From positions 15,564,001 to 15,628,000 of the forward strand of contig CM075988.1 in NCBI GenBank assembly GCA_038087875.1: a stretch of DNA of 64,000 nucleotides, read 5' to 3'. The DNA comes from Malacoraja senta. Taxonomy: Eukaryota. The number at the start of each line of letters is the position of its first letter. Within the stretch, counting starts at the first letter, position 1. The position numbers and the translations under genes were made by a program. Positions 24,357 through 64,000 of the stretch are shown piece after piece. Below the pieces are notes generated by a model. The model was not told the origin of the DNA, did no database searches, and was given only the letters and a program-made list of their open reading frames with translations.

Positions 24357-24530
24357 CAGTTCAGAGTGACAGGATCGTTGGAAGTTCCACGTTGTCTCGG
24401 CATCAGGGAAAGTCCATGAATCAAATACAAACAGACTCATTTGTTATCTGGTGATAAGGAGCCCTTAAAAAGAGAGCATTTGTGGCCTCGGTCACAGAGC
24501 TTCAGGAGGAGGAGTGCAGAGCAGAGGCAG
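24357..24530 (+). promoter_or_regulatory. Promoter and non-coding exon 1 of apoA-IV-like copy 1
   Basis: HNF4-like agggaaagtcca at 24405, inverted GATA pair at 24444/24452, TATA-like ttaaaaa at 24465, donor CAG|GTAAG at 24530; block is alignable with the promoters of copies 2-5. Confidence 0.65.
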
Positions 24531-24871
24531 GTAAGAGGAGCCTTGAGTGCAGCTTCTGTGCTTAATTGAGATGCAATTAAGAAGGCACGGAGTGTTTGTG
24601 CAATTACATATGCATCTGTTCGGCAAACGTTTTTGTGTAAGGTTGTGGTGTTTAGGTAACTGTTTGAAGAAAATCCACTGCATCAAAAATCATTTTCCTA
24701 TTTTCATTCATGTGGCAGGGTACAATTGTGTGGAGTTCAGCGTGAGGCAGGAATACCCAGGAAAATATTCCACATAGAAAAGAATAACTGGTGATAATGG
24801 AATAGGAGTTAAATATTTTTCTTTATTTTCACAGATTTTCTGAACAGTAAAGCAGGCGTTGTGAATCCATC

Positions 24872-24920
24872 ATGCATCTCTGGGCAATCCTTTTGTTAGC
24901 AGCTGCTACTTTGATGACAG
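24872..24920 (+). CDS. APOA4: Apolipoprotein A-IV-like copy 1, signal-peptide exon
   Basis: MHLWAILLLAAATLMT(G); 49 nt, phase-1 GT donor, typical of the exchangeable apolipoprotein family. Confidence 0.8.
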
Positions 24921-25345
24921 GTACGGGTTTTTAAATTTAAGGCTTTGTTTTAAATATACTTGAACTGTTGGGTTTTTTCTATCTCTTTTGAGCTTGTAGA
25001 TTTTGGACAAAAGATCTGCACTCCATCTGTTCAGCCCAGTTTTATGTTCAGACCCTGAGCTCTGAGACCAATGTTTCTTCCCTGGGGAAAGACTTGTTTC
25101 ACAATTCATCCTGGACAAGTTTTAAATCCAGGTCCCAAAAGACAAATGACTTTACTCTAAGAAACATCCAAACTCATCTCCAGGGAGGGATACCAGATTA
25201 TCCCTTTATGGCTTGATGTGATATGGTGAAGTCTCATGGGCCACTGCAAGCTGCTTGTCTGCTAACATCAATTAATGTTAAATATAATGAACTTGTTTCT
25301 GTGTTACCACTCTGAAACCCAACTTTATTTTCTGTTTTCATACAG

Positions 25346-25457
25346 GCTCCCAGGCTGAACTCAGTAGAGAACAAATTCAAGATGCATTCTGGGATTACAT
25401 CGGCCAATTGACCAACAATGACCTAAACGAAGGTTCGGAAATCAGGCAACAACTCAA
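25346..25457 (+). CDS. APOA4: Apolipoprotein A-IV-like copy 1, exon 3
   Basis: SQAELSREQIQDAFWDYIGQLTNNDLNEGSEIRQQL(N); WDY..QL motif; 112 nt. Confidence 0.85.
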
Positions 25458-26406
25458 GTGAGTGTTGGTAGTTGTGTCAGATGCAGCAAAGCTAGAAATG
25501 AGAGAATTAGTAAATGTTTCACAAGTACATTGACTGAGAGATTAAAGTGTGGCTTTCTCTATCTGTTTGAGGCCAAACTGGGATGAGACTGATGTTTGAA
25601 ATAAAGGAAGGTAGACAAAAAATGCTGGAGAAACTCAGCGGGTGAGGCAGCGTCTATGGAGAAAAGGAGTAGGTGACGTTTCAGGTCCAGACACTTCTTC
25701 AGACTGAAATAAAGGAAGTTGCTTGGTGGGGATGGCAGAACAGACTCTCAACAAACTGAAATCTATTCCTGCAACTAAGCGTGATCACTGTATAGAGCTG
25801 TGAGCACATGCAGGTATAGACTCAGACTTTGTAGCAGCACTGCATCAGGCCAGATGCAGCTACAATTAAATATAGAAATGGGAAATGCAGACATAAATAT
25901 AAATGCATGTGCAGGAAGTGTCAGACTACAGATAACGCTAGAGTATACTGTAGTCGAAAACAAAGTTTTGTGCAGTGTATATTACTGCTCCCAGTCACTG
26001 ATGCCCAATTTCTACTCAACATTTGATCTTCATTATAATCTTGATTTTCTTTGAAGTTGGCCACTTGCTCAACTCTAGGACCATTGTATATTTGTACCAT
26101 TAACCATCCCTTTTCCGAAAAAACAGATTATTTGGCAACTCTTTAAACAGCGGAGTTTAAGCAAGCAGTATAATTGTTCTGTTAGAATTATTTAATCCAT
26201 AGCATAAAAGGAGATCTCTATTTATTTGAAATCAATGCCTTATTTTACTACCCAAAATGAAACAGTAGGAGAACAGAATGAATGAAAGACATTAGATGAA
26301 TCTAATCATGTGTTACCAAGGAAGACCTGGAAATAATTCCAAAAGGCTTTCTGATCCAAATGTACTTTCCTAACAAGTTTAAGAAACAATTGTCTCTCTT
26401 TTCCAG

Positions 26407-27316
26407 TCACCTTATCGAGGACAATCTGCAGAGCGTCAATGACTATGCTGAGGATCTCCGACAGAAGTTGACTCCCTTCACAGATGGTCTCCATGAGCAG
26501 GTGACAGTAGACATTGAGAGCCTTCGCCAGCAGATAAGAGAACAGCTGGAAGACCTGAAGGAGAAACTTTCTCCCTTTGCGGAAGGAGTCCATCAGAGAA
26601 TCAGCAGGAACATTGAAGAATTTCATCAGAGGTTGACACCTTACACTGAAGAACTTAGCCAACAGCTGAAGAAGAATGCAGAGGAACTTAGGCAGAGGTT
26701 GACTCCCTTCACTGAAGAGCTTCAGGCCAAACTGGAAGTGAGCGCAGAGAACCTGAGGGAAGTCCTGACTCCCTACGCTGAAGAGCTCCAGATGAAGATC
26801 GATGAAAATATGGACAACATCAAGCAGAATGTGGCTGCCAAAGCTGAAGAATTTCGCTCCAGGTTTGATGAGAATGTCCAGGAGCTGCGCAGTAGCTTGG
26901 CTCCCTACACCGAAGATGTCCAACTGAAAATGAACGAACAGATTGCAGAAATGACCCGGAGGGTGGTGCCTTATGCCGAGATGCTCCAGACAAAGGTCAA
27001 CGAGCATGTGGAAGATCTGAACCAAAGGCTGAGCCCTTACATCGCCGAACTGAAAGTAAAACTTAATGAGAACGTGGGAAGCATGGACCAGAACCTGGCC
27101 CCATACATCGAAAATTTCAACACCAACATCAACCAGAGAATCGAGGAGTTCCATCAGAATGTGGCCCCCTACACTGAGCAGCTGAACAAGATCATCAGTC
27201 AGAATGTGAGGGAGATGCAAGAGAGACTTGCCCTGAATGGAGGCAACGTTCAGCAGGATCTTCAGAACAAGCTCACAACTGTATGGGACGACCTCTGGCA
27301 GAATCTGAAGAACTAA
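26407..27316 (+). CDS. APOA4: Apolipoprotein A-IV-like copy 1, exon 4 (spliced protein 356 aa)
   Basis: Pro-punctuated 22-mer amphipathic repeats (LTPY/LAPY/LSPF); KKNAEELRQRL and VQELRSSLAPY resemble APOA4. Confidence 0.9.
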
Positions 27317-28987
27317 TTGAGAAGTAGAAAGTGACTCAGTTGATCCATGTGTCAGAATAATGGGGTCCTCATTATCTCAAATTATAATATGCTAAATATA
27401 TTTATTTTTTTCAGAGAGGAAAATATAAAAATCAGTGACTGCATTTCTAGAGTTTAATCTGTAAAATATCTGCATTAAAACTTTGAAATGAATTTAATGA
27501 CTAATATGTTTCCTTGCTTTTACTATGTGTTACCAAATAGCTATCTGTAGAATCAATAAAAGAATACAGCACAGATCAAAGCCATTCATCCAGTCAAGTC
27601 TGCACATATCTTTTGGAGTGCACCGCAGTGCATACTATTTTCCCACACAATTCCTCATTTCACTGCAAATATCTCCTTCAAACATTTGTACAATATTATT
27701 TTGAAGGTTTTCATTGAAACCGTATACATCCTCTTCTGTAGAGCATTTGCTGAACACTTGTTTTGAAGTCCTTCATAATGTTTATTGCCCATAATTCAGC
27801 CCAATAATTCAACTATGTCCCAATCGGGAGTCTAATTTATCCTCATTGCTATCTTCTTTATTGTTCCGCTAATAAAGCAAGGAATCCCTTCATGTTTGCA
27901 GCAGCCAACTGAATCTGCCAATTTTTATATTTGGTGCAAAACCCACACAAATGTATTCACCTCATCTATGCCCCTTACCATTTTATAAACATCTATAAGT
28001 CAAGATCATCCCTCAGCCTCCCATAGTCCAGAGAAAAATCCCCCAGCTTATGTAGCTGCAATTTATAGCTCAAACCATCCAGACAGGCTAATGTCTTCAC
28101 TAAAGATAGACACAAAAAGCTGGAGTAACACAATGGGTCAAGCAGCATCCCCAGAGAAAAAGGTGACATTTTCGGGTCGAGAACCTTCTTCAGAGCGAGA
28201 GTCAGGGGAAAGGGAAATGGGAGATGTAGATGGTGGTATAGAGAGATATAGAACAAATTAATTAAAGATATGTAAAAAAGTAATGATGATCAAGGAAAGG
28301 TGGAGCGCACAAAGGTCCATTGTTGGCTGTGGGCTGGGTGATAACGAGTTATACAGACAATGAAACCCAACAGGACAACAGGGAAACTAATACAACGACA
28401 AGTGTGGGGGAGAGAGAGGGGATGCAAGGATTACGTCTTCGCTAATCTGTTTTGCACCCTTTCCATTTTAACGACATCCTTTGTGTTAAGTATCATATGC
28501 CATTTCACCAGCAGATCTATACCTTCATGATTTCTGTTACAATGTTCCTCATTATTTACAACTGCGTTTCTGACAAACAGATTTACTGGAGATATATCTG
28601 GGGAATAGAAAGTCGCATATCCCTTTGTTCATATGCACATGTCTGCTGAACATGCACATTGTTTCCACACCACTTCAGAACTGTGCTTGAGTATCTGATA
28701 TTATACACCATGTATGCTATGGTGGTGTCTATAGATTGGTTCATGCTCTGACGTCAACTCCCTCTTTCATATCAGCTTTTTATTATCCTCCTGCTGGATG
28801 CCTGAAGATCATTAAGATCAAAACATGGAGAGTGGGGGACATAAATCTTTAGTCAGGGAGGAGATAATGAGGCCGGGCTTCTAGGAGGGATTGAAGAGAT
28901 CAGGGAGTGAGAATGGATGTAATTGGTGGGGACAGAGAGTTTGAAGATGGAGATGTCAGGTGAAGCAGAAGATAGGGACACCGTGTG

Positions 28988-29496: not shown

Positions 29497-29499
29497 GGT

Positions 29500-31322: not shown

Positions 31323-34300
31323 AATTCAGAGAACTGAATGATTCTCAGGCAGGTGAACCCAGAGCCAAGTCCACCGCACTATTAATGACTCAGCCCCGTG
31401 AGTCAAGGTAAAAGGGCAGTGACAAATAATTCAATTATTAGAAGATCAGATTGACATTTCTGTAGTCATAAATAATCACAGGATGATGTGTTACCTCTCT
31501 GCTCCTTATATCCCATCAGTTTAACGATACATGATATATCCCATCTATCATTGTGTCATCAGCAAATTTAACACCATACCTTTATGCAGGTCATTTATGC
31601 AGCACCAATCCCTGTGACACACTAACCATTTTATCTTCCCAATCAGAAAAGGACCATTTTTGCTGACTTGCTCAGCTATCTGTGAACGAGCCAGACTTCA
31701 ATCAAGTACGTTACCAACTCTACTATCAGCCTTTATTTTCCACAACAATATTTGATGTGGCACCTTATCACTTCATCAACTTTGCAGACTTGCGCAATGT
31801 GTCCCATTTTGTTGCATTTGAAGCATTGAGCTTAACCTGAATGTACATTTGTCCTGAACAGATGTCTTGACAACAATAATGTGGTTTCCTGGCTTTTGCA
31901 TAACCTTGTCCCGATGGAGAAGATGTTTCCTCTGCCCCGCAGATTGGCTTAGATACACCACATACATTCATATTTACACCTTGCACAGAACACAACTCCC
32001 TTCGGTTCTTTTATGCCTTTTTCATAGCAATAATAATCCAATGCACTATATTAAATGTGACATCTAGTGTAGTAAAAACCTTGGTTGAATGTGCTCATGT
32101 GTAAGTCTACAAATGCTAAATCTCAGAGGATCCCACAGTTACAGACATGTGCAGATTCTTCCATTCAATGATCTAGTCCTCAATTGCATCTCTTGGCTTT
32201 TGACTCCAGGTACCAGATTTACAACTTTAGACAATTATTGTGGGCACTGGTTTAAAATAGTAATCTAATATTTGACGGCTTCAGTGAGAAGGATGTGAAA
32301 TACCCTATGACGTATCATCTCTTGGATTTAGAATCCAAGTACCAGCTTTATAGCTTTAGACAATTATTTGGGGCACTGTATTAAAGTGGACACCTAATAT
32401 TTGACTGCCTCAGTGAGGATGTCAAATACCCTATGAGATATCAAAAGACTAAGTATCAATGTAGAGGTGTTCAAATCTATTTCTGCTAAAAGAATAGTTC
32501 TCCTGGAGAGTAAATGTACTTATTCTGCTTGCTGTCCCCTCCTCCCAATACTTTATTATATTGTTAACTGAGAAAAGCTATCACCATCTGCTTCAAATAT
32601 GTATTAAACACTTCCTGTGCGTTATCATAGTTTAATGTTCTAATATATACAGCCTGCCATTCTCCTCTAGCACCTTTTGTAGTAACGATTCCCCGCTCAC
32701 TTACTCTGTACTCAGTGCAATAGTTTCTGGATTTCCCAAACTCATTCAGTCTCACTTGCTGTAGCCTTGCCTTAACCCAAATATGTGTGAGCCACCTGAC
32801 ATTGTACTAGCAGCCAGTGGCACAATTAGCAGAGCTACTAGCAGAGCTACTGCCTTACCTGTATGCGGCAAGGGCCACATGGGTATGTGTAAAGTTTGCA
32901 CGTTCTCCCTGTGACCGCATGAGATACCTCCAGGTGCTCCAATTTCCTCCCTATCCCAAAAAGATGCAGGTTGGTAGGTTATTTGTCTACTGCAAGTTAC
33001 TTCTTGTGTGTAGGTGAGTGGTAGAAACTGGGGAAGGTTGATGAGAAAATGGGTGAATTAAAAACATGAGATTAGGTAGGATTAGCGTACATTGATGAGC
33101 TTTTTAGTTTACTTTAGAGATACAGCGTGGAAACAGCCCCGACGACCCACTGTCCACACCGACCAGCGATTCCCGCACATTAACACTACCTTACACACAC
33201 TGGGGACAATTTTACATTTATACATTTATACCAAGCCATTTAAACTATAAACCTGTATGTCTTTGGAATGTAGGTGGAAACCAAAAGGTCTCGGAGAAAA
33301 CCCACACAGGTCACGGGGAGGTCGTACAAACTCCGTACCCGAACCCGGGTTTCTGGCATTGTAAGGCAGTACCTCTTCCGCTACGCCACCGTGCTGCCAT
33401 CTGCAAGGATTCAGAGGGCTAAAGGGCTAGTTTCTGTGCTATCTGTCTCTGTGACTCTATGATAAAGAAGAGGCTTCCAGTGATGATTTACCCTTGCACA
33501 GCTATTTCTACATATGCTACAAATGCTATGACCAAAAACACTGTGTCCTTAAGAATAAGGAATTGGCTTATGTGAACATACTCCTCTGGATAGTTTTGAT
33601 GGTCTTAGCAAATTTTCGACAGCTCAAATGAGGTAAAATAGAATCCTTCCTATTAGGAGGGGGATTGTTAGGCTCATCATGTGTAGGAAGGAACTGCAGA
33701 TGCTGGTTTATGCAGAAGATAGACACAAAATGCTGGAGTAACTCAGTGGGTCAGACAGCATCTCTGGAGAAAACGAATAGTGACCTTTCGAGTCAGAACC
33801 CTCTTCGGACTCATCATGTTTGTTTAAAGGAATTAATTCCTACATCCATATTCTTTCCCCAGGTCAATTTGTTTCCTCTCAACCAATTTATGTAGGGAAT
33901 TTATGTCTACTTCCACCCTCTCTCAGGGTACATTCCAGATCATGGCTACTCATTGTGTAATGATCCCCACATCTCCCCTCTGCTTCCTTTGCCGACTACC
34001 TCAAATCCTCTGGGTGCTGTGTGGGAAGGAAATGCAGATGCTGGTTTAGACCGAAGATAAACACAAAATGCTGGGGTAACTCAGTGGGACAGGCAGCATC
34101 TCTGGAGAGAAGGAATGGGTGATGTTTCAGGTCGATTTACTCCAGCATTTTGTGTCTGCCATTGGGTACTGCCTTCTTGCCAATGGAAACGTTTCCATTA
34201 AGAACACTTCGTAGTAAGTCCATAGAACAATCAAAATCTTATAGATGTTAAAATTGAAGCTGTACAATAACTGTATTGTTTCATATGCCGTTGGTTATCT

Positions 34301-34451
34301 TTTTGTACATTTGCTTCTAACATATTTATTTAAAAAAATAATAATAATTTAAAAAAAATTATAGATGCAATAAATCATGGCCTTTGGACTGAGTTGAAAC
34401 TTGAATGGATTTTGCGCTCTCGTGATTGAGTTGGAGTCATATTTAAGGCAG

Positions 34452-34626
34452 CAGTTCAGAGTGACAGTGTTGTTGGAAGCTCCACGTTCTCTTGGCATTC
34501 AGGGAAAGTCCATGAGTCGAACACAAGTGTGACAGTTTGTTATCAGCCATTGATAAGGTGCCCTTATATAGAGTGAGCGCGAGTTGGCTGACACACAGAG
34601 CTTCAGGAGGAGCATATCTGAGACAG
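34452..34626 (+). promoter_or_regulatory. Promoter and non-coding exon 1 of copy 2 (equivalent TATA boxes at 42708, 50856, 63204)
   Basis: agggaaagtcca at 34501, GATA pair at 34540/34551, TATATAG at 34565, donor CAG|GTAAG at 34626. Confidence 0.7.
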
Positions 34627-35262
34627 GTAAGAGGAGCCCTGAGGCTCACATTGCTCCAACCCAGGCAGCCTGCTTGCTTATCCTTCCAGCGACTATCTCT
34701 GTGGACCGCTGAGTGTTGAGGCAACTGGTCAAGGCAAAGCCGTGGGATTAAGAGTGTGGTTTTCTATTTTCAGTAATGTTACAGGCTATAATTGCAGCTT
34801 GGCAGGCTGCATTCAGGGAAGATATTTTCCCAGGCTGAAATCTTTAGGATCGGTGGTAGAGTTTCAGAATGAGGGCTGGGACATTTAGGACTGAGATAAG
34901 AAAGGATTTTGTCACTTAAAAGTTGGTCTTTGGAATTCTTTACCTTGGAGCACTGTGGAAGCTCAGTCATTGAGTTCATTCAAAATAGGGATGGATAGAT
35001 TTCTGGATGTTCAAAGTTTCGGGCGATATGAGGATAGTAAAATGATGCCTAGAAGGTGAGCCTTAATCTTAATGGCAGGGCATGCTCCAAGGGCGGGGCG
35101 GTCCACTCCTGCTCTGTTTTCTTGTGTTCTTTTTAATGGAGTTCGGAAGGAGACAATTATGCACACCGTGTTTTCAATGAGAATTTAAACCCTGGACTAA
35201 CTGATCTTTATTTTTATGTAGGTTTTCTGCAAAAGTAGAGCAAACAGTTGGAGAACTCCGCT

Positions 35263-35311
35263 ATGTTTCCCAAAGCAATCCTCCTGCTTCTTGCTGCAGT
35301 CTTCGTCCAAG
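35263..35311 (+). CDS. APOA4: Apolipoprotein A-IV-like copy 2, signal-peptide exon
   Basis: MFPKAILLLLAAVFVQ(D), like APOA4 MFLKAVVL; 49 nt. Confidence 0.88.
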
Positions 35312-36038
35312 GTATCAGCTTCAAATATTCCTCATTCCCTCTTTTCTTGCACTTAGACTGTGATTGGGATTTTGTTATCTTCAAGCATTCTTTCTTGAAG
35401 AAGTTCAGATCAGAATTATTTCTTCAAGAATTAAGTTCAGATCAGACTTTTGGAGCCCCATGCATTGTCCTTTCTTCCACACATTAGTTTGCTGGGTGAA
35501 GCTTGCTTCCTCTCCATTCTGATTTTGTGTTAAGCCCAGTTTCCATATATTTAAAGACAAGGGATTTTACCCTTGAATCACGCAGCAGTATTTCCAGTAA
35601 AGAACACTGGTTCTCACCAGGGTCTGGTGAAGTCTTGTAGCCCATCTGTCGTGTAATTTTAGTTTAGGTTAGTTTAGTGATGGGAACAGGGCCTTCGGCC
35701 CACTGAGTCCGCGCCGACCAGCAATCCCCGCACACTAACACTATCCTATACAAAGTAGGGACAATTTACAATTATACCAAGCCAGTTAAACTACAAACCT
35801 GTATATCTTTGGCATGTGGGAGAAAACCTGAGCACCTGAAGAAAGCCCATGCAGGTCATGGGGAGAACATACAAACTCCATGCAGACAGCACCCGTAGTC
35901 AGGATCGAATCCGGGCCTCTGGAGTTATAAGGCTACAGCTCTACCACTACCCCACCGTGCCGCACATATGAGGAGTGGATGCAGGGAAAGTTCCTCTCGT
36001 GTTCCCGTTCTGATTATCTCATTCTTTCTTTCTCACAG

Positions 36039-36165
36039 ACTGTCGGGCTGAGTACAATAGATCTCAGGTTCGTGAATCCTTCTGGAATTACATCAACCAA
36101 TTGGCCGAGGAAGCCAGGGATAGTATAGAACTGATTCAAAGCTCAGAAGTCAGCCAGCAACTCAA
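36039..36165 (+). CDS. APOA4: Apolipoprotein A-IV-like copy 2, exon 3
   Basis: CRAEYNRSQVRESFWNYINQLAEEARDSIELIQSSEVSQQL(N); 127 nt. Confidence 0.9.
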
Positions 36166-37375
36166 GTGAGTATTGGGGATTTGTTAGGGGCAATTGGAAA
36201 AGTTCAACCTCTTTACCCCAGGAAGAATTAAAGAGCCAGGAAAAAATTGTAAACAGTAACTTTGTAACATTGTGAGAAGTTCTTTCTATTTTCCAGATTA
36301 TGAACCTCACCAACATTATTGTCCATCCCTAATTGTTGATAGGCTAAATTAAGAAGTCCGTGAGATCTCAACTATGGACCAACAAGGACATTAGTGAAGC
36401 AGCTGGGTCTTTATGACAATCCACTCACCAGTAACAACACTTATATTTTTAATACCAAATTTACTTAACCACTAAAATTTAAATGCTTTTCAGTGCGAAA
36501 TGAATTCAGAAGCTCAGTCTTCATGGATTTGTTAGACCAGCAGCCTAACAACTGTGCCATATTATTAAGCAATGTTAATGAAGGGGTTTGTTAATGAACA
36601 GGAATGAGATTAAAGAATAAAAGAAGGGGCGTATCCCATTGGGGATGGTAGAACAGATAAGAAGGGTCTTGTCCCAAAACCTCACCCATTCCTTCTATCC
36701 AGAGACGCTGCCTGTCCCGCTGAGTTACTTCAGCATTTTGTGTCTATCTCAGGTAAACAAAACCTGCTTCTACAAAATAACTGATCAATCTCTATCTCTG
36801 TGGGTGGAGAGTGCAGGTACAAATAGGGGAATGAAATGAATAGGTTCAGCTGGAAATATTAATACAGATACAGTTATAAGAATGGCATTTGTGAATGCAG
36901 GCACTGGCACAGGTTAATTCATTTACTTTGAATTGCTAGTTTAGTTTCTAAACCCTAAGAGTATATAACCTTTGCAGTGTTAATCATCCCCTCAGTAATC
37001 TCTCTAAAACGTTATTACCTTACTACTTGTAGAGATTTACCAATCAATGTGAATGCCTTTCCACAATCAGATAACATAAAGCACAGAAGACCATTCAACT
37101 CATTGTGCTTGACTACACTCTTTATTATCCTCTCAAATTGTACCAATTCCGAAAGGACAGAATAAATGAAAGACTTTGGGAGAATCCTAACCTCTCTTCC
37201 CAATAAACATGCTGAGTTAACCTGAAAAGATTTCCTGATCCAAATGTCCTTTCGTTCCCTGAGCTCTGCTTCCCTCTGTAAAACATCTGTTTCAGTCACA
37301 GACTTACGCTGAGCTCTGTCTTAATGTATCTCTTCTCTGTAAAAAGTTTAACAAACAATTGTCTCTCTTTTGCAG

Positions 37376-43409: not shown

Positions 43410-43458
43410 ATGTTTCCCAAGGCAATCCTCCTGCTTCTTGCCGCAGTCTTGGTCCAAG
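43410..43458 (+). CDS. APOA4: Apolipoprotein A-IV-like copy 3, signal-peptide exon
   Basis: MFPKAILLLLAAVLVQ(D). Confidence 0.88.
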
Positions 43459-44185: not shown

Positions 44186-44312
44186 ACTGTCGGGCTGAGT
44201 ACAATAGAGATCAGGTTCGTGAAGTCTTCTGGAATTACATCAACCAATTGGCCGAGGAAGCCAGGGATAGTGTAGAACTGATTCAAAGCTCAGAAGTCAG
44301 CCAGCAACTCAA
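44186..44312 (+). CDS. APOA4: Apolipoprotein A-IV-like copy 3, exon 3
   Basis: CRAEYNRDQVREVFWNYINQLAEEARDSVELIQSSEVSQQL(N). Confidence 0.9.
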
Positions 44313-51557: not shown

Positions 51558-51606
51558 ATGTTTCCCAAGGCAATCCTCCTGCTTCTTGCCGCAGTCTTGG
51601 TCCAAG
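51558..51606 (+). CDS. APOA4: Apolipoprotein A-IV-like copy 4, signal-peptide exon
   Basis: Same as copy 3 at +8148. Confidence 0.88.
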
Positions 51607-52333
51607 GTATCAGCTTCAAATATTCCTCATTCCCTCTTTTCTTGCACTTTGACTGTGATTGGGATTTTGTTATCTTCAAGCATTCTTTCTTGAAGAAGTT
51701 CAGATCAGAATTCTTTCTTCAAGAATTAAGTTCAGATCAGACGTTTGGAGCCCCATGCATTGTCCTTTCTTCCACACATTAGTTTGCTGGGTGAAGCTTG
51801 CTTCCTCTCCATTCTGATTTTGTGTTAAGCCCAGTTTCCATATATTTAAAGACAAGGGATTTTACCCTTGAATCACGCAGCAGTATTTCCAGTAAAGAAC
51901 ACTGGTTCTCACCAGGATCTGGTGAAGTCTTGTAGCCCATCTGTCGTGTAATTTTAGTTTAGGTTAGTTTAGTGACGGGAACAGGGCCTTCGGCCCACTG
52001 AGTCCGCGCCGACCAGCGATCCCCGCACACTAACACTATCCTATACAAAGTAGGGACAATTTACAATTATACCAAGCCAGTTAACCTACAAACCTGTATA
52101 TCTTTGGCATGTGGGAGAAAACCTGAGCACCTGAAGAAAGCCCATGCAGGTCATGGGGAGAACATACAAACTCCATGCAGACAGCACCCGTAGTCAGGAT
52201 CGAATCCGGGCCTCTGGAGTTGTAAGGCAACAGCTCTACCACTACCCCACCGTGCCGCACATATGAGGAGTGGATGCAGGGAAAGTTCCTCTCGTGTTCC
52301 CGTTCTGATTATCTCATTCTTTCTTCCTCACAG

Positions 52334-52460
52334 ACTGTCGGGCTGAGTACAATAGAGATCAGGTTCGTGAAGTCTTCTGGAATTACATCAACCAATTGGC
52401 CGAGGAAGCCAGGGATAGTGTAGAACTGATTCAAAGCTCAGAAGTCAGCCAGCAACTCAA
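52334..52460 (+). CDS. APOA4: Apolipoprotein A-IV-like copy 4, exon 3
   Basis: Same as copy 3 at +8148. Confidence 0.9.
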
Positions 52461-53670
52461 GTGAGTATTGGGGATTTGTTAGGGGCAATTGGAAAAGTTC
52501 AACCTCTTTACCCCAGGAAGAATTAAAGAGCCAGGAAAAAATTGTAAACAGTAACTTTGTAACATTGTGAGAAGTTCTTTCTATTTTCCAGATTATGAAC
52601 CTCACCAACATTATTGTCCATCCCTAATTGTTGATAGGCTAATTTAAGAAGTCAGTGAGATCTCAACTATGGACCAACAAGGACATTAGTGAAGCAGCTG
52701 GGTCTTTATGACAATCCACTCACCAGTAACAACACTTATATTTTTAATACCAAATTTATTTAACCACTAAAATTTAAATGCTTTTCAGTGCGAAATGAAT
52801 TCAGAAGCTCAGTCTTCATGGATTTGTTAGACCAGCAGCCTAACAACTGTGCCATATTATTAAGCAATGTTAATGAAGGGGTTTGTTAATGAACAGGAAT
52901 GTGATAAAAGAATAAAAGAAGGGGCGTATCCCATTGGGGATGGTAGAACAGATAAGAAGGGTCTTGTCCCAAAACCTCACCCATTCCTTCAATCCAGAGA
53001 CGCTGCCTGTCCCGCTGAGTTACTTCAGCATTTTGTGTCTATCTCAGGTAAACAAAACCTGCTTCTACAAAAGAACTGATCAATCTCTATCTCTGTGGGT
53101 GGAAAGTGCAGGTACAAATAGGGGAATGAAATGAATAGGTTCAGCTGGAAATATTAATACAGATACAGTTGTAGGAATGGCATTTGTGAATGCAGGCACT
53201 GGCGCAGGTTAATTCATTTACTTTGAATTGCTAGTTTAGTTTCTAAACCCTAAGAGTATATAATCTTTGCAGTGTTAATCATCCCCTCAGTAATCTCTCT
53301 AAAACGTTATTACCTTACTACTTGTAGAGTTTTACCAATCAATGTGAATGCCTTTCCACAATCAGATAACATAAAGCACAGAAGACCATTCAACTCATTG
53401 TGCTTGACTACACTCTTTATTTTCCTCTCAAATTGTACCAATTACGAAAGGACAGAATAAATGAAAGACTTTGGGAGAATCCTAACCTCTCTTCCCAATA
53501 AACATGCTGAGTTAACCTGAAAAGATTTCCTGATCCAAATGTCCTTTCGTTCCCTGAGCTCTGCTTCCCTCTGTAAAACATCTGTTTCAGTCACAGACTT
53601 ACGCTGAGCTCTGTCTTAATGTATCTCTTCTCTGTAACAAGTTTAACAAACAATTGTCTCTCTTTTGCAG

Positions 53671-54580
53671 TCATCTTATCGAGGAGAATCTGCAGAACGT
53701 CAATAACTATGCTGAGGATCTCCGACAGAAGTTGACTCCTTTAACAGATGGTCTTCGTGAGAAGACGACAGTAGACATTGACAGCCTTCACCAGCAGATA
53801 AAAGAACAGCTGGAAGACCTGAAAGACAATCTTTCTCCCTTTGCTGATGGAGTCCATCAGAAGATTAGCAATAACATTGAAAAATTTCATCAGAGGTTGG
53901 CACCTTACACTGAAGAACTTAGCCAACAGCTGAAGAAGAATGCGGAGGAACTTAGGCAGAGGTTGACTCCCTTCACTGAAGAGCTTCAGGCCAAACTGGA
54001 AGTGAGCGCAGAGAACCTGAGGGAAGTCCTGACTCCCTACGCTGAAGAGCTCCAGATGAAGATCGATGCAAATATGGACAACATCAAGCAGAATGTGGCT
54101 GCCAAAGCTGAAGAATTTCGCTCCAGGTTTGATGAGAATGTCCAGGAGCTGCGCAGTAGCTTGGCTCCCTACACCGAAGATGTCCAGCTGAAGATGAACC
54201 AACAGATTGCAGAAATGACCCGGAGGGTGGTGCCTTTTGCCGAGACGCTCCAGACAAAGGTCAACGAGCACGTGGAAGATCTGAACCAAAAGCTGAACCC
54301 TTACATCGCCGAACTGAAAGTAAAACTTAACGAGACCGTGGGAAGCATGGACCAGAACCTGGCCCCATACATCGAAAATCTCAACACCAACATCAACCAG
54401 AGAATCGAGGAGTTCCATCAGAATGTGGCCCCCTACACTGAGCAGCTGAACAAGATCATCAGTCAGAATGTGAGGGAGATGCAAGAGGGACTTGCCCTGA
54501 ATGGAGGCAACGTTCTGCAGGATCTTCAGAACAAGCTCACAACTGTATTTGACGACTTCTGGCAGAATCTGAAGACCTAA
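53671..54580 (+). CDS. APOA4: Apolipoprotein A-IV-like copy 4, exon 4
   Basis: Intact; differs from copy 3 by K>N (53830) and M>T (54246). Confidence 0.92.
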
Positions 54581-57500
54581 TTGAGAAGTAGACAGTGACT
54601 CACTCAATCCATGTGTCAGGACAATGGGTCTTCTTGGAGCACAGAAAACAAGATGCATAAATATAACTAGGCTCAATCTATTTATTTTTTTGCTGAGAGG
54701 AATATATTAAAATCATTGATTACAATTCCAGAGTGTGAAATGTAAAATACCTGCAATAAAACTTTGAATCATCTTTCAGCTAATAATGTTCCATGATTTA
54801 TTTCATATTCAGATTAGCTTATTGTAATACACAATGGGGTGCGACGAAAGTTCTTGTTTACATGAAGCCCACAAAGCAAACAGTATACCTACAGTAAAGA
54901 TTCATACAGCATTAAATACCACAAGTGCAAAACATTAGAAAGGTGAAAGAATGTAGTGCAAAATCAGAATAGCACAAAATAATATTAAAATATAAGAAGG
55001 GAATGGGGTGTGAAGAGGAGGTTTTTTTCAGGGGGACGTGCAGCAGTGGGAAAGAAGCTGGTGTTAATCTGGGATTTCTGAACTATCCAGTTCCTTTGAA
55101 AGGAATGTCCAGGGTGACAAGTGTCCTTGATGATACTTGCAGCCTTCCCGATGCAAAGCACAGGGAGATTGACTGGATGGAGGGAAGTTGTGTGACTGTG
55201 ATGGACCAGGCTGTGATGGACCAGGCTGTAACTAGGCTGTGTTCAACCACTCTCTGCGGGGTCAGGTGGGCAAGAACAGAACAGTTGTCATATTCGGCTG
55301 AATCTTAGAAACATAGAAACATAGAAAATAGGTGCAGGAGGAGGCCATTCGGCCCTTCGAGCCAGCACCGCCATTCATTGTGATCATGGCTGATCGTCCC
55401 CAATCAATAACCCGTACCTGCCTTCTCCCCATATCCCTTGATTCCACTAGCTCCTAGAGCTCTATCTAACTCCCGCTTAAATCCACCCAGTGATGGACCG
55501 GGCTGTCAGACTACTTTCTATAGCACATCTGCAGAAGTTAGAGGTAATCTTTGTGGATATTACAAATCCTCTCTGATGCCTAGGAATGTAAATACACTGA
55601 AACGCTTTATTGATTACCTCATCGGTGTGAAGGGACCTGGCTAGGTTGCGTGTGATATGGATACCTAGAAAAATGAAGCTGTTGAATATTTCTGCAGCAA
55701 CTCAATTACAGAGGTCATGGTTATGTTCACCATTCGCTTCCTTGGGTCTACAACCAACTCTTTCATCTTGCTAACGTTAAGGGCCAGGTTATTGTCCTGA
55801 CATGATAACATTAGGTTCTTGATCTTTTTGCTATACTTTGTCTCACTGTTATTGTAAGTCCAGCCAACAACAGTGATATTGGTGTTGTAGGTAGGCACAA
55901 AAAGCTGGAGTTACTCAGTGGGTCAGGCAGCATTGCAGGAGAAATGTGACATTTCGGGTTGGGACCTTTTTTTAGAGGTCTGAAGAAGGGTCCCAACCCT
56001 AAATGTCACCAATTCCTTTTCTCCTGTGATGCTGCCTGACCCGTTGAGTTACTCCAGTTTTTTGTGTCTATCTTCGGTTTAAACCAGCATCTACAGTTCC
56101 TCCCTACACATATCGTTGTTGCACTTGACTACACAATCATGGGTGTACAAGATACAAGATACAAGATACATTTATTTGTCACATGTGCCAGTTGGCACAG
56201 TGAAATGTGTGGTCACCATACAGCCATACAATAAAAATAAAGAACACAACACACAAGGAGTAGAGCATGGCATTTAGCCCACAACCCTGAGGGCTCCAGT
56301 GTTGAGGGCCAGGGTGGAGGATATGTTATGCGATCAATTCTCATTGACTGAGGTCCACTGGTCAAGAAGTCTAGAAGCCAGTTGCAGATGGAGGCCCCAA
56401 GGCCAAGGTCTAGAGGTTTAAGGATGAGCTTATTCCGTCTTTTATGCCTTTTTCATAGCAATAATAATCCAATGCATTATATTAAATGTGACATCTAGTG
56501 TAGTAAAAACCTTGGTTGAATGTGCTCATGTGTAAGTCTACAAATGCTAAATCTCAGAGGATCCCACAGTTACAGAGATGTGCAGATTCTTCCATTCAAT
56601 GATCTAGTCCTCAATTGCATCTCTTGGCTTTGGCTCCAGGTACCAGATTTACAGCTTTAGACAATTATTGTGGGCACTGGATTAAAATAGTAATCCAATA
56701 TTTGACGGCTTCAGTGAGAAGGATGTGAAATACCCTATGACGTATCATCTCTTGGATTTAGAATCCAAGTACCAGCTTTATAGCTTTAGACAATTATTTG
56801 GGGCACTGTATTAAAGTGGACACCTAATATTTGACTGCCTCAGTGAGGATGTCAAATACCCTATGAGATATCAAAAGACTAAGTATCAATGTAGAGGTGT
56901 TCAAATCTATTTCTGCTAAAAGAATAGTTCTCCTGGAGAGTAAATGTACTTATTCTGCTTGCTGTCCCCTCCTCCCAATACTTTATTATATTGTTAACTG
57001 AGAAAAGCTATCACCATCTGCTTCAAATATGTATTAAACACTTCCTGTGCGTTATCATAGTTTAATATTCTAATATATACAGCCTGCCATTCTCCTCTAG
57101 CACCTTTTGTAGTAACGATTCCCCGCTCACTTACTCTGTACTCAGTGCAATAGTTTTCCGATTTCCCAAACTCATTCAGTCTCACTTGCTGTAGCCTTGC
57201 CTTTACCCCAAATATGTGTGAGCCACCTGACATTGTACTAGCAGCAAGTGGCACAATTAGCAGAGCTACTGCCTTACCTGTAGCGGCAGGGGCCACATGC
57301 GTATGTGTAAAGTTTGCACGTTCTCCCTGTAACCGCATGAGTTACCTCCAGGTGCTCCAATTTCCTCCCTATCCCCAAAAGATGCAGGTTGGTAGGTTAT
57401 TTGTCTACTGCAAGTTACCTCTTGTGTGTAGGTGAGTGGTAGAAACTGGGGAAGGTTGATGAGAAAATGGGTGAATTAAAAACATGAGATTAGGTAGGAT

Positions 57501-59292
57501 TAGCGTACATTGATGAGCTTTTTAGTTTACTTTAGAGATACAGCGTGGAAACAGCCCCGACGACCCACTGAGTCCACACCGACCAGCGATCCCTGCACAT
57601 TAACACTACCCTACACACACTGGGGACAATTTTACATTTATACATTTATACCAAGCCATTTAAACTATAAACCTGTATGTCTTTGGAATGTAGGTGGAAA
57701 CCAAAAGGTCTCGGAGAAAACCCACACAGGTCACGGGGAGGTCGTACAAACTCCGTATGGGCAAGCACCCGGTGTCATGATCGAACCCGGGTTTCTGGCA
57801 TTGTAAGGCAGTAGCTCTACCGCTATGGCAGCACGGTGGCGTGGCAAGGATTCACGGTGGCAAGGATTCAGAGGGCTAAAGGGCTAGTTTCTGTGCTATC
57901 TGTCTCTGTGACTATGATAAAGAAGAGGCTTCCAGTGATGATTTACCCTTGCGCAGCTATTTCTACATATGCTACAAATGCTATGCCAAAAACACTGTGT
58001 CCTTAAGAATAAGGAATTGGCTTATGTGAACATACTCCTCTGGATAGTTTTGATGATCTTAGCAAATTTTCGACAGCTCAAATGAGGTAAAATAGAATCC
58101 TTCCTCTTAGGAGGGGGATTGTTTGGCTCATCATGTGTAGGAAGGAACTGCAGATGCTGGTTTATGCAGAAGATAGACACAAAATGCTGGAGTAACTCAG
58201 TGGGTCAGACAGCATCTCTGGAGAAAAGGAATAGTGACCTTTCCGGTCAGAACCCTTCTTCGGACTCATCATGTTTGTTTAAAGGAATTAATTCCTCATT
58301 CCATATTCTTTCCCCAGGTCAATTTGTTTCCTCTCATCCAATTTACGTAGGGAATTTATGTCTACTTCCACCCTCTCTCAGGGTACATTCCAGATCATGG
58401 CTACTCATTGTGTAATGATCCCCACATCTCCCCTCTGCTTCCTTTGCCGACTACCTCAAATCCTCTGGGTGCTGTGTGGGAAGGAACTGCAGATGCCGGT
58501 TTAAACCGAAGATAAACACAAAATGCTGGGGTAACTCAACGGGACAGGCAGCATCTCTGGAGAGAAGGAATGGGTGATGTTTCAGGTCGATTTACTGCAG
58601 CATTTTGTGTCTGCCATTGGGTACTGCCTTCTTGCCAATGGAAACGTTTCCATTAAAAACACTTCGTAGTAAGTCCATAGAACAATCAAAATCTTATAGA
58701 TGTTAAAATTGAAGCTGTACAATAACTGTATTGTTTCATATGCCGTTGGTTATCTTTTTGTACATTTGCTTCTAACAAATTTATTTAAAAATAAATAAAA
58801 AATAAATAAAAATTATAGATGCAATAAATCATGGCCTTTGGACTTTATTTATTTTTATTTATTTATTTATTTATTCCGAACAAGTAAAGACATTAAAGAC
58901 ATTGATATTAACAAAATCGAAATTATCAAACAATTGAACATTGCAATCAACATTTACAATTGAGAAGAACAAAATCAAGGTTCCAATGTCCAACTCAGAG
59001 TCTGTACAAGCTCGAAAAGGAGTGAGAAGAAGAATAACTTATTAAATCTCACCCCTTTTCCCCAACACTTCTATCGTATTTAAAAACCAATTCCTTACTA
59101 ATAATAGTACTGCCCTAGGCAATTTCCCATAATACATACAGACACTTATATACATTCAACTATTATGTACATACAATCTTCATATTTGAAGTACCCAACA
59201 TCAGTGAACAATAGTAAACAAGATAAACATCAACAATATTAACAAGATAAACATCAACGATTGTAAACAAGATAAACATCAACCCCCACTTG

Positions 59293-62200
59293 TCAACCAT
59301 CCCCTCCATCCCTGTACCCCTTGAGCATTATTTTTTTATATATCATTTTAAAATGATTCATGTTTGTGCATTGCTTCAATTCCCCGTTCAATTTATTCCA
59401 CACTCCTACTCCACAAACCGAAATACAAAAGGATTTTCTAGTCGTACGGACTTGTTGTTTCTTAAAGTTAAATATTCCTCTTAAATTGTAACCCCCCACA
59501 CGCTCGTTAAATAATTTTTGAATGTTTCCAGGTAAATTTTTATTTTTGGCCCTAAACATTATCTGAGCTGTTTTGAATGTGACCAAATCTTCTAATTTTA
59601 ATAATTTTGACTCTAAAAATAATGGATTTGTATGACCCAGATACTTAGCATTATGGATAATACGAATTGCTCTTTTTTGCATCATGGTTAATGAGTGTAT
59701 CGAATTTTTATAATTATTTCCCCAGACTTCTGTACAATAATTTAAGTAGGGTAAAATTAATGTACAATAAAGAATACGGAGTGATTTGTAATCCAGAGCT
59801 TGCTTGGCTTTGTATAATACAGAGATACTTTTTGATAATTTTAATTTTACATGTTTAATATGTGATTTCCAGCTTATTTTATCGTCAATTATAACCCCAA
59901 GAAATTTATTTTCATGCACTCTTTCAACTTCCACCCCATTTATCTTTATACTTACTAGGGGACTTATTCTACAATTACCAAATAACATTATTTTAGTTTT
60001 ACTCAGATTTAATGAAATTTTATTACTATCAAACCATATTTTCAATTTACCCATTTCTTTTATTATTTTATCCAATAGCCTTTTTAAATTTTCCCCAGAG
60101 CAAAAAATATTTGTATCATCTGCAAACAAAACCAGCCTCAAGACATTGGACACATTACAAATATCATTTATGTACATGATAAATAATTTTGGGCCCAGCA
60201 CTGACCCCTGTGGTACACCACACACAATGTCCAAACATGTAGAATTATGACTACCCAGATTTACAAACTGTTGCCTGTTACTTAAGTAGCTTTTAATCCA
60301 GTCCAGTACTATTCCTCTAATTCCATACCTCTCCAATTTTTTAAATAAAATATCATGATTAATTGTATCAAATGCTTTTTTTATGTCAATGAATATCCCA
60401 GCTGCATATAATTTCTTATCAATGGCGTTTGTGATGTCTTCAATTAATTCTAGTATTGCAAGTGATGTTGATCTATTTGTTCTGAATCCATATTGACTTT
60501 CTGTTAATAATTTATTATTTTCTACAAATTTGTCTAGTCTATTATTAAACATTTTTTCTAATATTTTGGAAAATTGTGGGAGTAAGGAAACAGGTCTATA
60601 GTTTGTAAAATGATGCTTGTTCCCTGTTTTGTATATTGGTATTATTTTTGCTATTTTCATTTTAATTGGAAAAGTGCCGGTCTGGAAGGATAAATTACAG
60701 ATGAATGTTAAAGGTTTGGAGATCCCCTCAATGACCATCTTAACTAGCGACATGTCAATGTCATTGAAATCGGTAGACTTCTTATTTTTACATGTTTTGA
60801 CAATATCCAGCAGTTCTTTCTCTTCTACTGCCGTAAGAAACATAGAGCAGGGATTTCTTTCCACTAATTTCTCAGGTGTTTCTCCAGATGTCCCTGAATC
60901 AGGGATTTGTTTAGCCAGGTCTGGTCCAATATTAACAAAAAAATTATTAAAGCTATTAGCTATATCTTCCATATTGTAAATTTCCTTATCCTTATCAATA
61001 AAATACTTCGGGTAATTTGTTCTCCCCGGACCATTTCGGATAATGCTATTAAGTATGCTCCATATTCTTTTTATATTGTCTTTATTGTCATCTAATTTCT
61101 TCTTATAATAATCTTTCTTGCTTTCTCTTATGATGTAAGTTAATTTATTTTTATACTTTTTATATTTATTTTCTGTATCTTTAGTTCTCTCTCTTATAAA
61201 ATCTCTGTATAGGCCATTTTTTTTTTACAAGCATTTTGTAATCCCTTTGTAATCCATGGACATTTAGTATATTTTGATTTTCTATTATATTCTTTAATTG
61301 GACAATTTTTATCATATAATAACTTAAACATATCAATAAATGTTTCATAAGCACTATCAATGTCTCTTTTTTGGTATATTATATCCCAGTTTTGTGCCAA
61401 TAGATCCTTTTTTAGTGCATTGATAGCTTCCTCCGATCTCACTCTTCTATATTCTATTAATCCGCTTGGTTTGTTGTTCCTGTGGACACCATCATAAACT
61501 ACAAAAACTGGCAGATGGTCACTTATATCATTAATTAATAATCCACTTACTATTTTATTTTCCAAATCATTGTTAAATATATTGTCAATGAGTGTAGCGC
61601 AATGGGAAGTAATTCTACTCGGTCTAGTGATTTTCGGAAATAGACTCATGCTGTACATAGTATTAATAAAATCTTCTGTAAGGTTGTGTTGATTAGGATT
61701 TAGTAGGTCAATATTGAAATCTCCACATAAAAACACTGATTTACTACCTGTTGTTGAAAACATACTCTCCATCCAGCCCCTGAAGATTTCAATACTTGAC
61801 CCCGGTGCCCTATATATACAGCTAATGATTACATTTTTATTTCCACCATTACTTATTTCTATAGTTATACATTCATGCAGATTGTCAACCACAGTTATCA
61901 TATTATCTACTACCTTATAATTCAGAGTTGTATCCACATATAGTGCTACCCCTCCTCCCCCCTTATTTTTTCTATTGATGTAATTGAAGTCATATCCGTC
62001 CATCTCAAAATCAATTCCCTTTTCTTGATTAATCCATGTTTCAGATATTGCGATGACATTGAATGGTTGTGAAAATTTTTGTAAATACTCTTTAATACTA
62101 TTGAAATTCGTATAGAGGCTCCTGCTATTAAAGTGGATAATAGATAATTTGCCTTTTGTATTAATATTCTGATTATACTGCTCCTCTGTGTAGTAGCAGC

Positions 62201-62399
62201 AGATATTTTTGTCGTTAGAATTAAAGTAAAAATTATTGTCCGGGTCTATATCGTATTCCAAATCCTGTAAATTGTGATCGGTATATTCGAATGGTTGTAA
62301 CTTCGGTTGTTCCTTTTCGCTTATTATTTTAGTTACTTGACTTCCATTTCCAGATGTTAATGGCTGAATTCCTTCAGTGTTTTCCCGTTTTATGATCAT
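59293..62399 (-). CDS. LINE ORF2 (endonuclease-reverse transcriptase), split by a 1-nt frameshift in the A10 run at 61217-61226
   Basis: Adding one A joins the 401-aa and 559-aa ORFs through CKKKNGLYRDF...IWSILNSII...IYNMEDIAN into ~1035 aa. Confidence 0.85.
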
Positions 62400-63025
62400 T
62401 GGTATTTGTCCAGGTCTGCAATATCTCTGATGACCAGCACTTTGGCTTCCTCTGGTGTTCCATTTAATTTAATAAAGATTTTACAGTTTGCAGTCCAGGT
62501 ATTTAATATTTTTTTTTGTTTCTTAAGGTATCGTGCTTGTCGGGCTATATCGGCATTTCGTTTTGTTAGGTGCTCATTCATGTATACTTTTGTTCCCTTC
62601 AGCTTTCTTCCTTGTTTTAGGAGACTGACTTTATATTTCCTGCTTACAAACCTTATTATGATGGCAGGTTTGTCATCACTATTTTTAACATCTTTCGATT
62701 TTTTCCTGGGCAGTGGGTGACAAGCCTCGATGTTATCGCAGTCTACTTGTATACCTTTCGACTGCAGGAAGGCCGCCACCTGTTGCTCCGTGGAGCTTGT
62801 GTCCATTTCCCCGGGCTCCCCCCCGTTTTCGTCAGTCACCGCCCGTGCGTATGACCGGGGCTTTATACTGAGCCCGGTAATGATGATGTTGTTCTCTCTG
62901 GTGTACTGCTCCAGATCTGCAACTCTGCCCTCCAGGAACACCAGTCGCCGGTCCTTTTCGGCGCTCTGGATCCGAAGATCCCTTACCTCCGCCACGAGGT
63001 CGAGGATGGCTTTCTGCTGTTTTTT
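62396..63025 (-). CDS. LINE ORF1 C-terminal part (coiled coil plus RRM-like domain)
   Basis: LEQYTRENNIIITG, IEACHPL, PAIIIRF, VYMNEHLT, WTANCKIFIK; stop overlaps the ORF2 start (ATGA). Confidence 0.8.
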   Translation of the reverse strand, partial: KKQQKAILDLVAEVRDLRIQSAEKDRRLVFLEGRVADLEQYTRENNIIITGLSIKPRSYARAVTDENGGEPGEMDTSSTEQQVAAFLQSKGIQVDCDNIEACHPLPRKKSKDVKNSDDKPAIIIRFVSRKYKVSLLKQGRKLKGTKVYMNEHLTKRNADIARQARYLKKQKKILNTWTANCKIFIKLNGTPEEAKVLVIRDIADLDKYQ

Positions 63026-63905
63026 GACTGAGTTGAGACTTGAATGGATTTTGCCCTCTCGTGATTGAGTTGGAGTCATATTTAAGGCAGCAGTTCAGAG
63101 TGACAGTGTTGTTGGAAGCTCCACGTTCTCGTGGCATTCAGGGAAAGTCCATGAGTCGAACACAAGTGTGCCAGTTTGTTATCAGCCATTGATAAGGTGC
63201 CCTTATATAGAGTGAGCGCGAGTTGGCTGACACACAGAGCTTCAGGAGGAGCATATCTGAGACAGGTAAGAGGAGCCCTGAGGCTCACATTGCTCCAACC
63301 CAGGCAGCCTGCTTGCTTATCCTTCCAGCGACTATCTCTGTGGACCGCTGAGTGTTGAGGCAACTGGTCAAGGCAAAGCCGTGGGATTAAGAGTATGGTT
63401 TTCTATTTTCAGTAATGTTACAGGCTATAATTGCAGCTTGGCAGGCTGCATTCAGCGAAGATATTTTCCCAGGCTGAAATCTTTAGGATCGGTGGTAGAG
63501 TTTCAGAATGAGGGATGGGCCATTTAGGACTGAGATAAGAAAGGATTTTGTCACTTAAAGGTTGGTAAGTCTTTGGAATTCTTTACCTTGGAGAACTGTG
63601 GAAGCTCAGTCACTGAGTTCATTCAAAATAGGGATGGATAGATTTCTGGATGTTCAAAGTTTCGGGCGATATGAGGATAGTAAAATGATGCCTAGAAGGT
63701 GAGCCTTAATCTTAATGGCAGGGCATGCTCCAAGGGCTGGGCGGTCCACTCCTGCTCTGTTTTCTTGTGTTCTTTTTAATGGAGTTCGGAAGGAGACAAT
63801 TATGCACACCGTATTTTCAATGAGAATTTAAACCCTGGACTAACTGATCTTTATTTTTATGTAGGTTTTCTGCAAAGGGAGAGCAAACAGTTGGAGAACT
63901 CCGCT

Positions 63906-63954
63906 ATGTTTCCCAAGGCAATCCTCCTGCTTCTTGCCGCAGTCTTGGTCCAAG
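63906..63954 (+). CDS. APOA4: Apolipoprotein A-IV-like copy 5, signal-peptide exon (rest beyond the window)
   Basis: MFPKAILLLLAAVLVQ(D); non-coding exon 1 ends at 63265. Confidence 0.85.
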
Positions 63955-64000
63955 GTATCAGCTTCAAATATTCCTCATTCCCTCTTTTCTTGCACTTAGA

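Follow-up and report, generated by a model that had tools for sequence, protein, structure and literature searches.

According to the available parts of three reports (PMC6523623, PMC10887881 and PMC11201263), human APOA4 has three exons and APOA5 four, and both are single genes near ZPR1. In zebrafish, a divergent apoA-IVa gene and three close paralogs, apoA-IVb.1 through apoA-IVb.3, have been described as syntenic with APOE (PMC4348566, in excerpt), and the accessible text of PMC6325677 reports that ApoD clusters were expanded in teleosts. With regard to cartilaginous fish, surveys report no ApoA-V (PMC6854765), and apolipoprotein A-IV is included in a catshark pancreas transcriptome (PMC4362833, in its available part). 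In this study, we analyzed a stretch of 64,000 nucleotides from Malacoraja senta (assembly GCA_038087875.1, contig CM075988.1, positions 15,564,001 to 15,628,000 of the forward strand; hereafter the window, whose own numbering is used for all coordinates), and found that apolipoprotein genes form a tandem array next to ZPR1. The array is real in the assembled sequence. No description of it turned up among the top-ranked titles of the literature, and the available part of PMC11612004 likewise contained nothing relevant. Our results suggest that it is probably a birth-and-death tandem cluster of secreted apolipoproteins of the A-IV/A-V group, which turns over by non-allelic recombination (unequal crossing-over). 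An earlier account of the same stretch (the sequence-only reading) had contrasted it with mammals, in which ZPR1 is followed by single APOA5 and APOA4 genes, and the human genes, as described in the three reports above, match this contrast.

Comparison of the window with itself revealed an 18.7-kb match (98.7% identity, offset 8134 bp) that was far beyond chance, together with shorter matches at two and three periods. The amplicon units start at 32007, 40141, 48290 and 56438, giving periods of 8134, 8149 and 8148 bp; they are arranged head-to-tail, and the three internal junctions are identical in sequence. Based on self-comparison and splice models, three units are complete (8134, 8149 and 8148 bp), all on the + strand: unit 1 (32007..40140) with gene g2, unit 2 (40141..48289) with g3 and unit 3 (48290..56437) with g4. 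Unit 4 (56438..64000, +), which carries the 5' part of g5, is split by a long interspersed nuclear element (LINE) and cut by the end of the window; its match stops at 58844 and picks up again past a 4181-bp insertion. The array therefore consists of one old copy, g1, followed by g2-g4 in complete units and g5 in the partial unit. Each unit also contains a two-copy 129-bp tandem repeat (81%) near its start (32187-32443 in unit 1).

Gene models were derived from splice signals in the sequence, with no RNA behind them. Four complete spliced open reading frames (ORFs) were obtained, all with GT/AG sites and no internal stop. The old paralog g1 (24835..27480, +; coding sequence (CDS) 24872-24920, 25346-25457 and 26407-27316) encodes 356 amino acids in coding exons of 49, 112 and 910 nt, whereas g2 (CDS 35263-35311, 36039-36165 and 37376-38285), g3 (43410-43458, 44186-44312 and 45523-46432) and g4 (51558-51606, 52334-52460 and 53671-54580), also on the + strand, encode 361 amino acids each in coding exons of 49, 127 and 910 nt. 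The polyA signal is AATAAA in g2-g4 (38459, 46607 and 54755, respectively) and the variant ATTAAA in g1 (27474). For g5 (+), the window holds only the promoter, exon 1 (donor after 63265) and the signal-peptide exon (63906-63954). A non-coding first exon with a conserved donor was predicted in all five copies, so that these would be four-exon genes. The coding introns follow base 49, within the signal peptide, and base 161 in g1 or 176 in g2-g4; an intron in the signal peptide and another after the first repeat block is the layout given in the available part of PMC6523623.

The promoter and non-coding exon 1 of g1 occupy 24321..24547 (+; donor after 24530) and contain an HNF4-like site at 24409, a GATA-like site at 24452 and a weak TATA-like site at 24465, at which binding would be expected from the motifs. 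TATA-like boxes were also located at 34565 for g2 and 63204 for g5. In an alignment of 238 columns, the g1 and g2 promoters are 74% identical. TGATAAG occurs five times on the window's + strand, each time inside one of the five promoters, and five of the six occurrences of AAAGTCCA also fall in these promoters. At the position where g2-g5 have TATATAG, g1 has TTAAAAAG. We take these motifs to be of the GATA and TATA types, and AAAGTCCA agrees in 8 of 9 bases with the HNF4-specific motif given in the available text of PMC3384313.

Overall, these analyses partly confirmed what the sequence-only reading had observed. Its intact spliced ORFs in copies 1-4, its promoter motifs and polyA signals, its fifth copy visible only as far as the signal-peptide exon and its placement of ZPR1 as the neighbour (PF03367, E 4e-19; minus-strand first exon with ATG at 20719) were all recovered. 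The proposed amplicon of ~8.15 kb, repeated at least four times, agrees with the period and the four unit starts, but only three units are complete. Similarly, at least five genes are present in the assembled sequence, but only four are secure, given the near-identity of the g3 and g4 segments (99.91%).

With respect to the encoded proteins, exon 4 matched PF01442 in both g1 (256.5 bits, E 1.9e-76) and g2 (250.8 bits, E 1e-74; cut-off 90), and prolines are spaced at 33, 22, 22, 22, 44, 22, 22, 22 and 22 residues in g1-g4, i.e., the last exon encodes proline-punctuated 22-residue repeats. The only hydrophobic stretch is N-terminal, starting from residue 5, and is taken as a putative signal peptide. 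Among 37 sequences of solved structures, human ApoA-IV was the best match (E 1.6e-51; ApoA-I 1.7e-21, ApoE 1e-10), and a protein atlas search returned only PF01442 clusters. The structure model was all-helical at low confidence (mean predicted local distance difference test score (pLDDT) 54.6, predicted template modelling score (pTM) 0.26). Homologue searches yielded no protein of more than 41% identity (2 hits among 1047 candidates, the best 150 of 400, and 10 hits among 8000 candidates); these lists also missed well-known A-IV clusters and are not read as an absence of orthologues.

For phylogenetic placement, proteins were hand-picked from ~185 fetched ones, 47 for a 50-row tree built by a quick method and 27 for a 29-row tree built by a careful method with LG+G4, a model that is less reliable when branches are long. 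Look-ups of 30 proteins and the search lists supplied the names, and some group labels of unnamed rows are our own reading of the sequences. In the 29-row tree, the window genes joined six shark and sawfish 'A-IV-like' proteins (support 100/99), which agrees with the cartilaginous fish that the sequence-only reading had supposed. The A-IV/A-V group holding them was supported at 98/97, and at 98 by the Shimodaira-Hasegawa-like approximate likelihood ratio test (SH-aLRT) in the 50-row quick tree; this clade excludes ApoA-I, ApoE and the APOE-linked teleost A-IV. Grouping with ApoA-I was rejected by the approximately unbiased test (p-AU 1.8e-4), whereas grouping with tetrapod A-IV (p-AU 0.395) or with A-V (0.432) was rejected in neither case, and the best LG+G4 tree placed A4 and A5 together at 36/0. 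Thus, the window genes are, on these matches and trees, PF01442 apolipoproteins of the A-IV/A-V group, and their proteins may work like ApoA-IV. The 'apoA-IV-like' label of the earlier account holds at the level of the A-IV/A-V group, but does not separate A-IV from A-V. As side observations, N-glycosylation sequons number 0 in g1, 3 in g2, 1 in g3 and 2 in g4, with K112N, one of the two residue changes between g3 and g4, creating a sequon, and g2-g4 have a single cysteine at residue 18, whereas g1 has none.

A further aspect of the array is the mosaic structure of g1. Between g1 and g2, synonymous differences amounted to 17.5 of 35 sites in exons 2-3 but 13 of 188 in exon 4 (Fisher p 1.4e-8), with a synonymous divergence (dS) of 0.84 in exons 2-3 (95% interval 0.43-1.75). 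Intron 2 could not be aligned, and intron 3 was 59% identical, but its last 36 bp reached 92%. Thus, the divergence that the sequence-only reading had attributed to the first copy holds for promoter, introns and exons 2-3, but not for exon 4, which is 95.6% identical to that of g2 and includes identical runs of 151, 124 and 117 bases; in the self-comparison, g1 matched the amplicon at 92% over 1134 bp. Exon 4 of g1 appears to have been overwritten by gene conversion, or by a double exchange of like effect, that was limited to this last exon; the putative tract (26371..27487, +) begins ~35 bp before the end of intron 3, takes in exon 4 and reaches into the start of the 3' untranslated region (UTR). 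The exon-4 differences are unevenly spread (26 over the first 280 nt against 14 over the last 630; p 5e-6), a pattern suggestive of repeated conversion. Strong conservation was rejected as the cause of this likeness, as synonymous sites and the flanking intron and UTR were homogenised too.

The units themselves also appear to have exchanged sequence. Substitution divergence was 1.71% between units 1 and 2, 1.66% between units 1 and 3, 0.32% between units 2 and 3, and 1.0-2.3% for unit 4. Indels of 12 and 22 bp occur among the units; units 2 and 3 differ by one gap column only. Among 105 biallelic four-way sites, 6 grouped units 1 and 2 against 3 and 4, 12 grouped units 1 and 4 against 2 and 3, and none grouped units 1 and 3. 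The 6 and the 12 sites fall in separate tracts. Since both patterns fit no single tree, they point to unequal exchange. Units 3 and 4 are identical over their first 1376 bp and diverge thereafter, and 19 of the 26 substitutions between units 2 and 3 sit within the first 1250 bp. Sequencing error was rejected as the origin of the unit differences, because alleles are shared and clustered and indels are present. The youngest repeat pair lies in a shifted register (41402..57697, +; 41402-49549 against 49550-57697) and comprises the g3 and g4 segments, with 7 substitutions and no gap in 8148 bp (0.086% divergence). At the mutation rate of another species, the epaulette shark (7e-10 per generation, interval 1.4-14.1e-10; available part of PMC10587355), this divergence would correspond to ~6e5 generations and the g2/g3 split (1.7%) to ~1e7 generations; thus, there is no need to regard the bulk of the array as recent or as restricted to a single species. 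Unit 4 additionally carries a private short inversion and a small duplication at the homologue of 33372-33402, at the end of an element resembling a short interspersed nuclear element (SINE), which looks like a template switch, and the youngest pair has its shifted-register breakpoint close to this SINE-like element.

The insertion in unit 4 is a non-long-terminal-repeat (non-LTR) retrotransposon, i.e., a LINE (58845..63025, -; 4181 bp), with matches to PF03372 (E 5.9e-9) and PF00078 (E 1.4e-38), which the earlier account had not mentioned. Its boundaries were set against the empty homologous site in unit 3, and the sites in the other units are empty too; the LINE marks unit 4 as a distinct locus. 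It has a (TAAA)n tail, a 4-bp target duplication (GACT) and an ORF1 truncated at the 5' end, which lacks a Pfam match and may resemble elements of the L2 group (Crack/Daphne-like). The endonuclease and reverse transcriptase frames (424 and 643 codons) join at a homopolymer run near 61217-61226, and this frame break is either a real slip or a consensus error. The element looks young, with long open endonuclease and reverse transcriptase frames; its GC content is 33% against 42% for the window, which contains no second copy. It ends 179 bp upstream of the TATA-like box of g5, leaving the proximal motifs intact, and pushes any g5 sequence further upstream 4.2 kb away; an effect on g5 would be a guess.

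Taken together, the array probably arose as follows. First, an old duplication would have produced a g1-type and a g2-type gene. Second, repeated gene conversion would have homogenised the 910-nt exon 4, whereas the promoter, the signal peptide and exon 3 diverged; two regulatory and N-terminal modules would thereby drive nearly the same lipid-binding body. Third, the 8.15-kb segment with the g2-type gene would have been tandemly duplicated, and then expanded and shuffled by unequal crossing-over. Finally, the LINE would have inserted just upstream of the proximal promoter of g5. As judged from knowledge of the family, intact copies would yield signal-peptide-bearing proteins with proline-punctuated 22-residue amphipathic helices that coat lipoproteins; family knowledge and motifs also suggest that a promoter of the HNF4/GATA type would direct expression in gut, liver or yolk sac, and the extra copies would probably raise output.

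Several points weigh against such a turnover of redundant copies. The four intact ORFs and the promoter block conserved at 74% imply some selection for function. An omega of 0.4 or less was rejected for g2-g3 against the non-coding rate (p 4e-4), but this estimate comes from one pair with 19 coding changes, and recombination between copies can distort its value. In addition, a single assembled sequence underlies the copy number and any view of expression, and the far end of the array is beyond the window, so that the first breakpoint and the total copy number lie outside the data. Of 24 sequencing runs listed for 30000-39000, 23 shared part of this stretch and 1 at least half of its words, with no RNA run among those listed; these runs were not taken as evidence of copy number, range or expression. 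Finally, at 0.086% the divergence of the g3/g4 pair is below the nucleotide diversity of the epaulette shark (0.002; available part of PMC10587355), so that the pair may be a very recent duplication or else two haplotypes placed one after the other. Tandem arrays are prone to such errors.

A partial assembly artefact of this kind, with g3 and g4 being one locus and the true count of the window four, is somewhat unlikely but would be compatible with cluster turnover. The few substitutions and the lack of a gap in the youngest pair are within the shark allelic range, but an artefact cannot explain the other units, with their divergence of 1.7%, indels, private LINE and mosaic tracts, and the single gap column between units 2 and 3 suggests an accurate consensus.

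A little less probable is an adaptive dosage amplification, in which selection for more copies would have raised the amount of apolipoprotein available to carry lipids in liver, gut or yolk sac. Whole genes were duplicated with their flanks, four ORFs and five proximal promoters are intact, and dose can matter, as overexpression of ApoA-IVb.1 alters food intake in zebrafish (PMC4348566, in excerpt). However, dosage predicts a conserved protein, whereas 16 nonsynonymous changes and 3 synonymous ones separate g2 from g3 (nonsynonymous divergence (dN) 0.019, dS 0.013), and 16 of 855 nonsynonymous sites (1.87%) against 120 of 7031 non-coding sites (1.71%) do not differ (p 0.68). The proteins of the copies thus appear to change roughly as fast as neutral sequence and show no trace of selection for identity, as expected for redundant copies; although it comes from one pair, this result speaks against selection that simply favours a larger amount of one and the same protein. 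In addition, a LINE is tolerated close to the TATA box of g5.

Diversifying selection, with copies specialising in lipid affinity, glycosylation or tissue instead of drifting, is doubtful. The dN/dS of ~1.4 between g2 and g3, their 13 amino-acid differences (including W352F, Y248F and Q341L) and the varying sequon counts would agree with it, but g3 and g4 are only 2 residues apart, and significant positive selection among the copies was rejected, as the nonsynonymous excess was not significant against either synonymous (Fisher p 0.78) or non-coding sites (p 0.68). It is very improbable that g1 represents the APOA5 of cartilaginous fish (or a functional stand-in of independent origin) with its exon 4 overwritten by APOA4-type neighbours: g1 adjoins ZPR1 as APOA5 does and its last intron follows coding base 161, as intron 3 of human APOA5 follows c.161 (PMC10887881, available part), both of which may be coincidence, and the trees fit an affinity to A-IV and one to A-V about equally (p-AU 0.40 and 0.43), but residues 1-54 of g1 gave 100 and 92 against two mammal-type A-IV proteins and 51-62 against six A-V-type ones (other A-IV, 23-65), the 5-residue gap of g1 follows the FWDY motif whereas A-V is shortened mainly before it, a dS of 0.84 in exons 2-3 would be low for a split predating the jawed-vertebrate lineages, and g2-type genes also have four exons. 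If true, it would explain the ApoA-V missing from surveys of cartilaginous fish (PMC6854765), move the A-IV/A-V split back to early jawed vertebrates, and place one lipid-binding body under two regulatory modules, one of them dosage-amplified.

As it stands, the locus is a tandem gene cluster of a familiar kind that looks like ordinary gene-cluster turnover rather than proven adaptation, and the exon-limited conversion is its most interesting feature. It would offer a compact case of one-exon concerted evolution, which is able to hide old paralogs from whole-protein trees. If reads confirm the array, the locus would correct the simple view that cartilaginous fish have a single ApoA-I and a single ApoA-IV, and copy-specific bases and the LINE by g5 make copy number, per-copy expression and the effect of a promoter-proximal insertion testable.

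Several other features flank the array. The 5' end of ZPR1 (19299..20719, -) comprises exon 1, from the ATG at 20719 to 20594, and a second exon inside 19299-19616; ~3.6 kb separate this ATG from the g1 promoter, and ZPR1 and the apolipoprotein genes are thus arranged head-to-head. In the interval between them, a perfect 132-bp tandem duplication (1.8 copies, 100% matches) was observed at 21114-21355. What is left of a CR1-like LINE occupies 6857-10337 (+), probably in a ZPR1 intron, and comprises part of an ORF1 that is esterase-like (PF13472) as well as endonuclease and reverse transcriptase, whose frames are shifted; a transposase fragment of the Tc1/Sleeping Beauty type (PF25787 and PF01498) lies at 14178-14840 (-). 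The stretch that separates g1 from the array contains tandem repeats of 32/64 bp that have an inverted partner (29033-29500) and resemble a small non-autonomous DNA element. An Rfam scan of positions 1-32000 gave no matches.

As an interpretation, the sequence-only reading was partly supported. The sequence bears out that an apoA-IV-like lipid-transport gene has been amplified in tandem beside ZPR1, and the tree supports a cartilaginous fish, but the lineage-specific, ongoing and dosage aspects and the proposed link to lipid-rich livers were not supported. The g2/g3 split corresponds to ~1e7 generations at the borrowed rate and an assembly duplicate could account for the youngest pair, which leaves an ongoing amplification without support; the g2-g3 comparison gave no purifying signal of the kind that dosage would require; and, with regard to lineage specificity, zebrafish has three close apoA-IVb paralogs (PMC4348566, in excerpt), and in the basking shark at least two gene ids (five accessions; P0001 and P0153) encode a related protein with 292 of 306 residues identical. 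The latter hints that such genes may have multiplied in further cartilaginous fish as well.

Finally, we compared the array with the described systems. It resembles the human APOA1/C3/A4/A5 cluster in having A-IV/A-V-group genes beside ZPR1, an intron in the signal peptide and another after the first repeat, but differs in being a multi-copy array with exon-4 conversion between paralogs, whereas the human genes are single. The predicted four exons of the window genes also differ from the three of human APOA4, and the three-exon form may be a derived state in mammals. The window genes are transcribed away from ZPR1 and the human A4 and A5 genes towards it (order from the available part of PMC6523623), which suggests an inversion in one lineage. 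The A-IV-like proteins of Carcharodon, Cetorhinus, Heterodontus, Pristiophorus, Pristis and Stegostoma form one clade with the window genes (100/99), but are only 26-41% identical to the window proteins and known from proteins alone; they are probably a paralogous or fast-evolving lineage. The zebrafish apoA-IV set, as described in the available text, is like the window in having one divergent and three closely related paralogs, but its synteny is with human APOE and not APOA4, and a medaka protein of that type (P0029) fell outside the clade of the window genes. ApoD is a lipocalin and belongs to a different protein family. Its expansion in teleosts, as far as the available account goes, is backed by expression and selection evidence, whereas the array of the window is known from sequence alone; the two are alike as lineage-level tandem growth of a lipid-ligand transport gene in fish.

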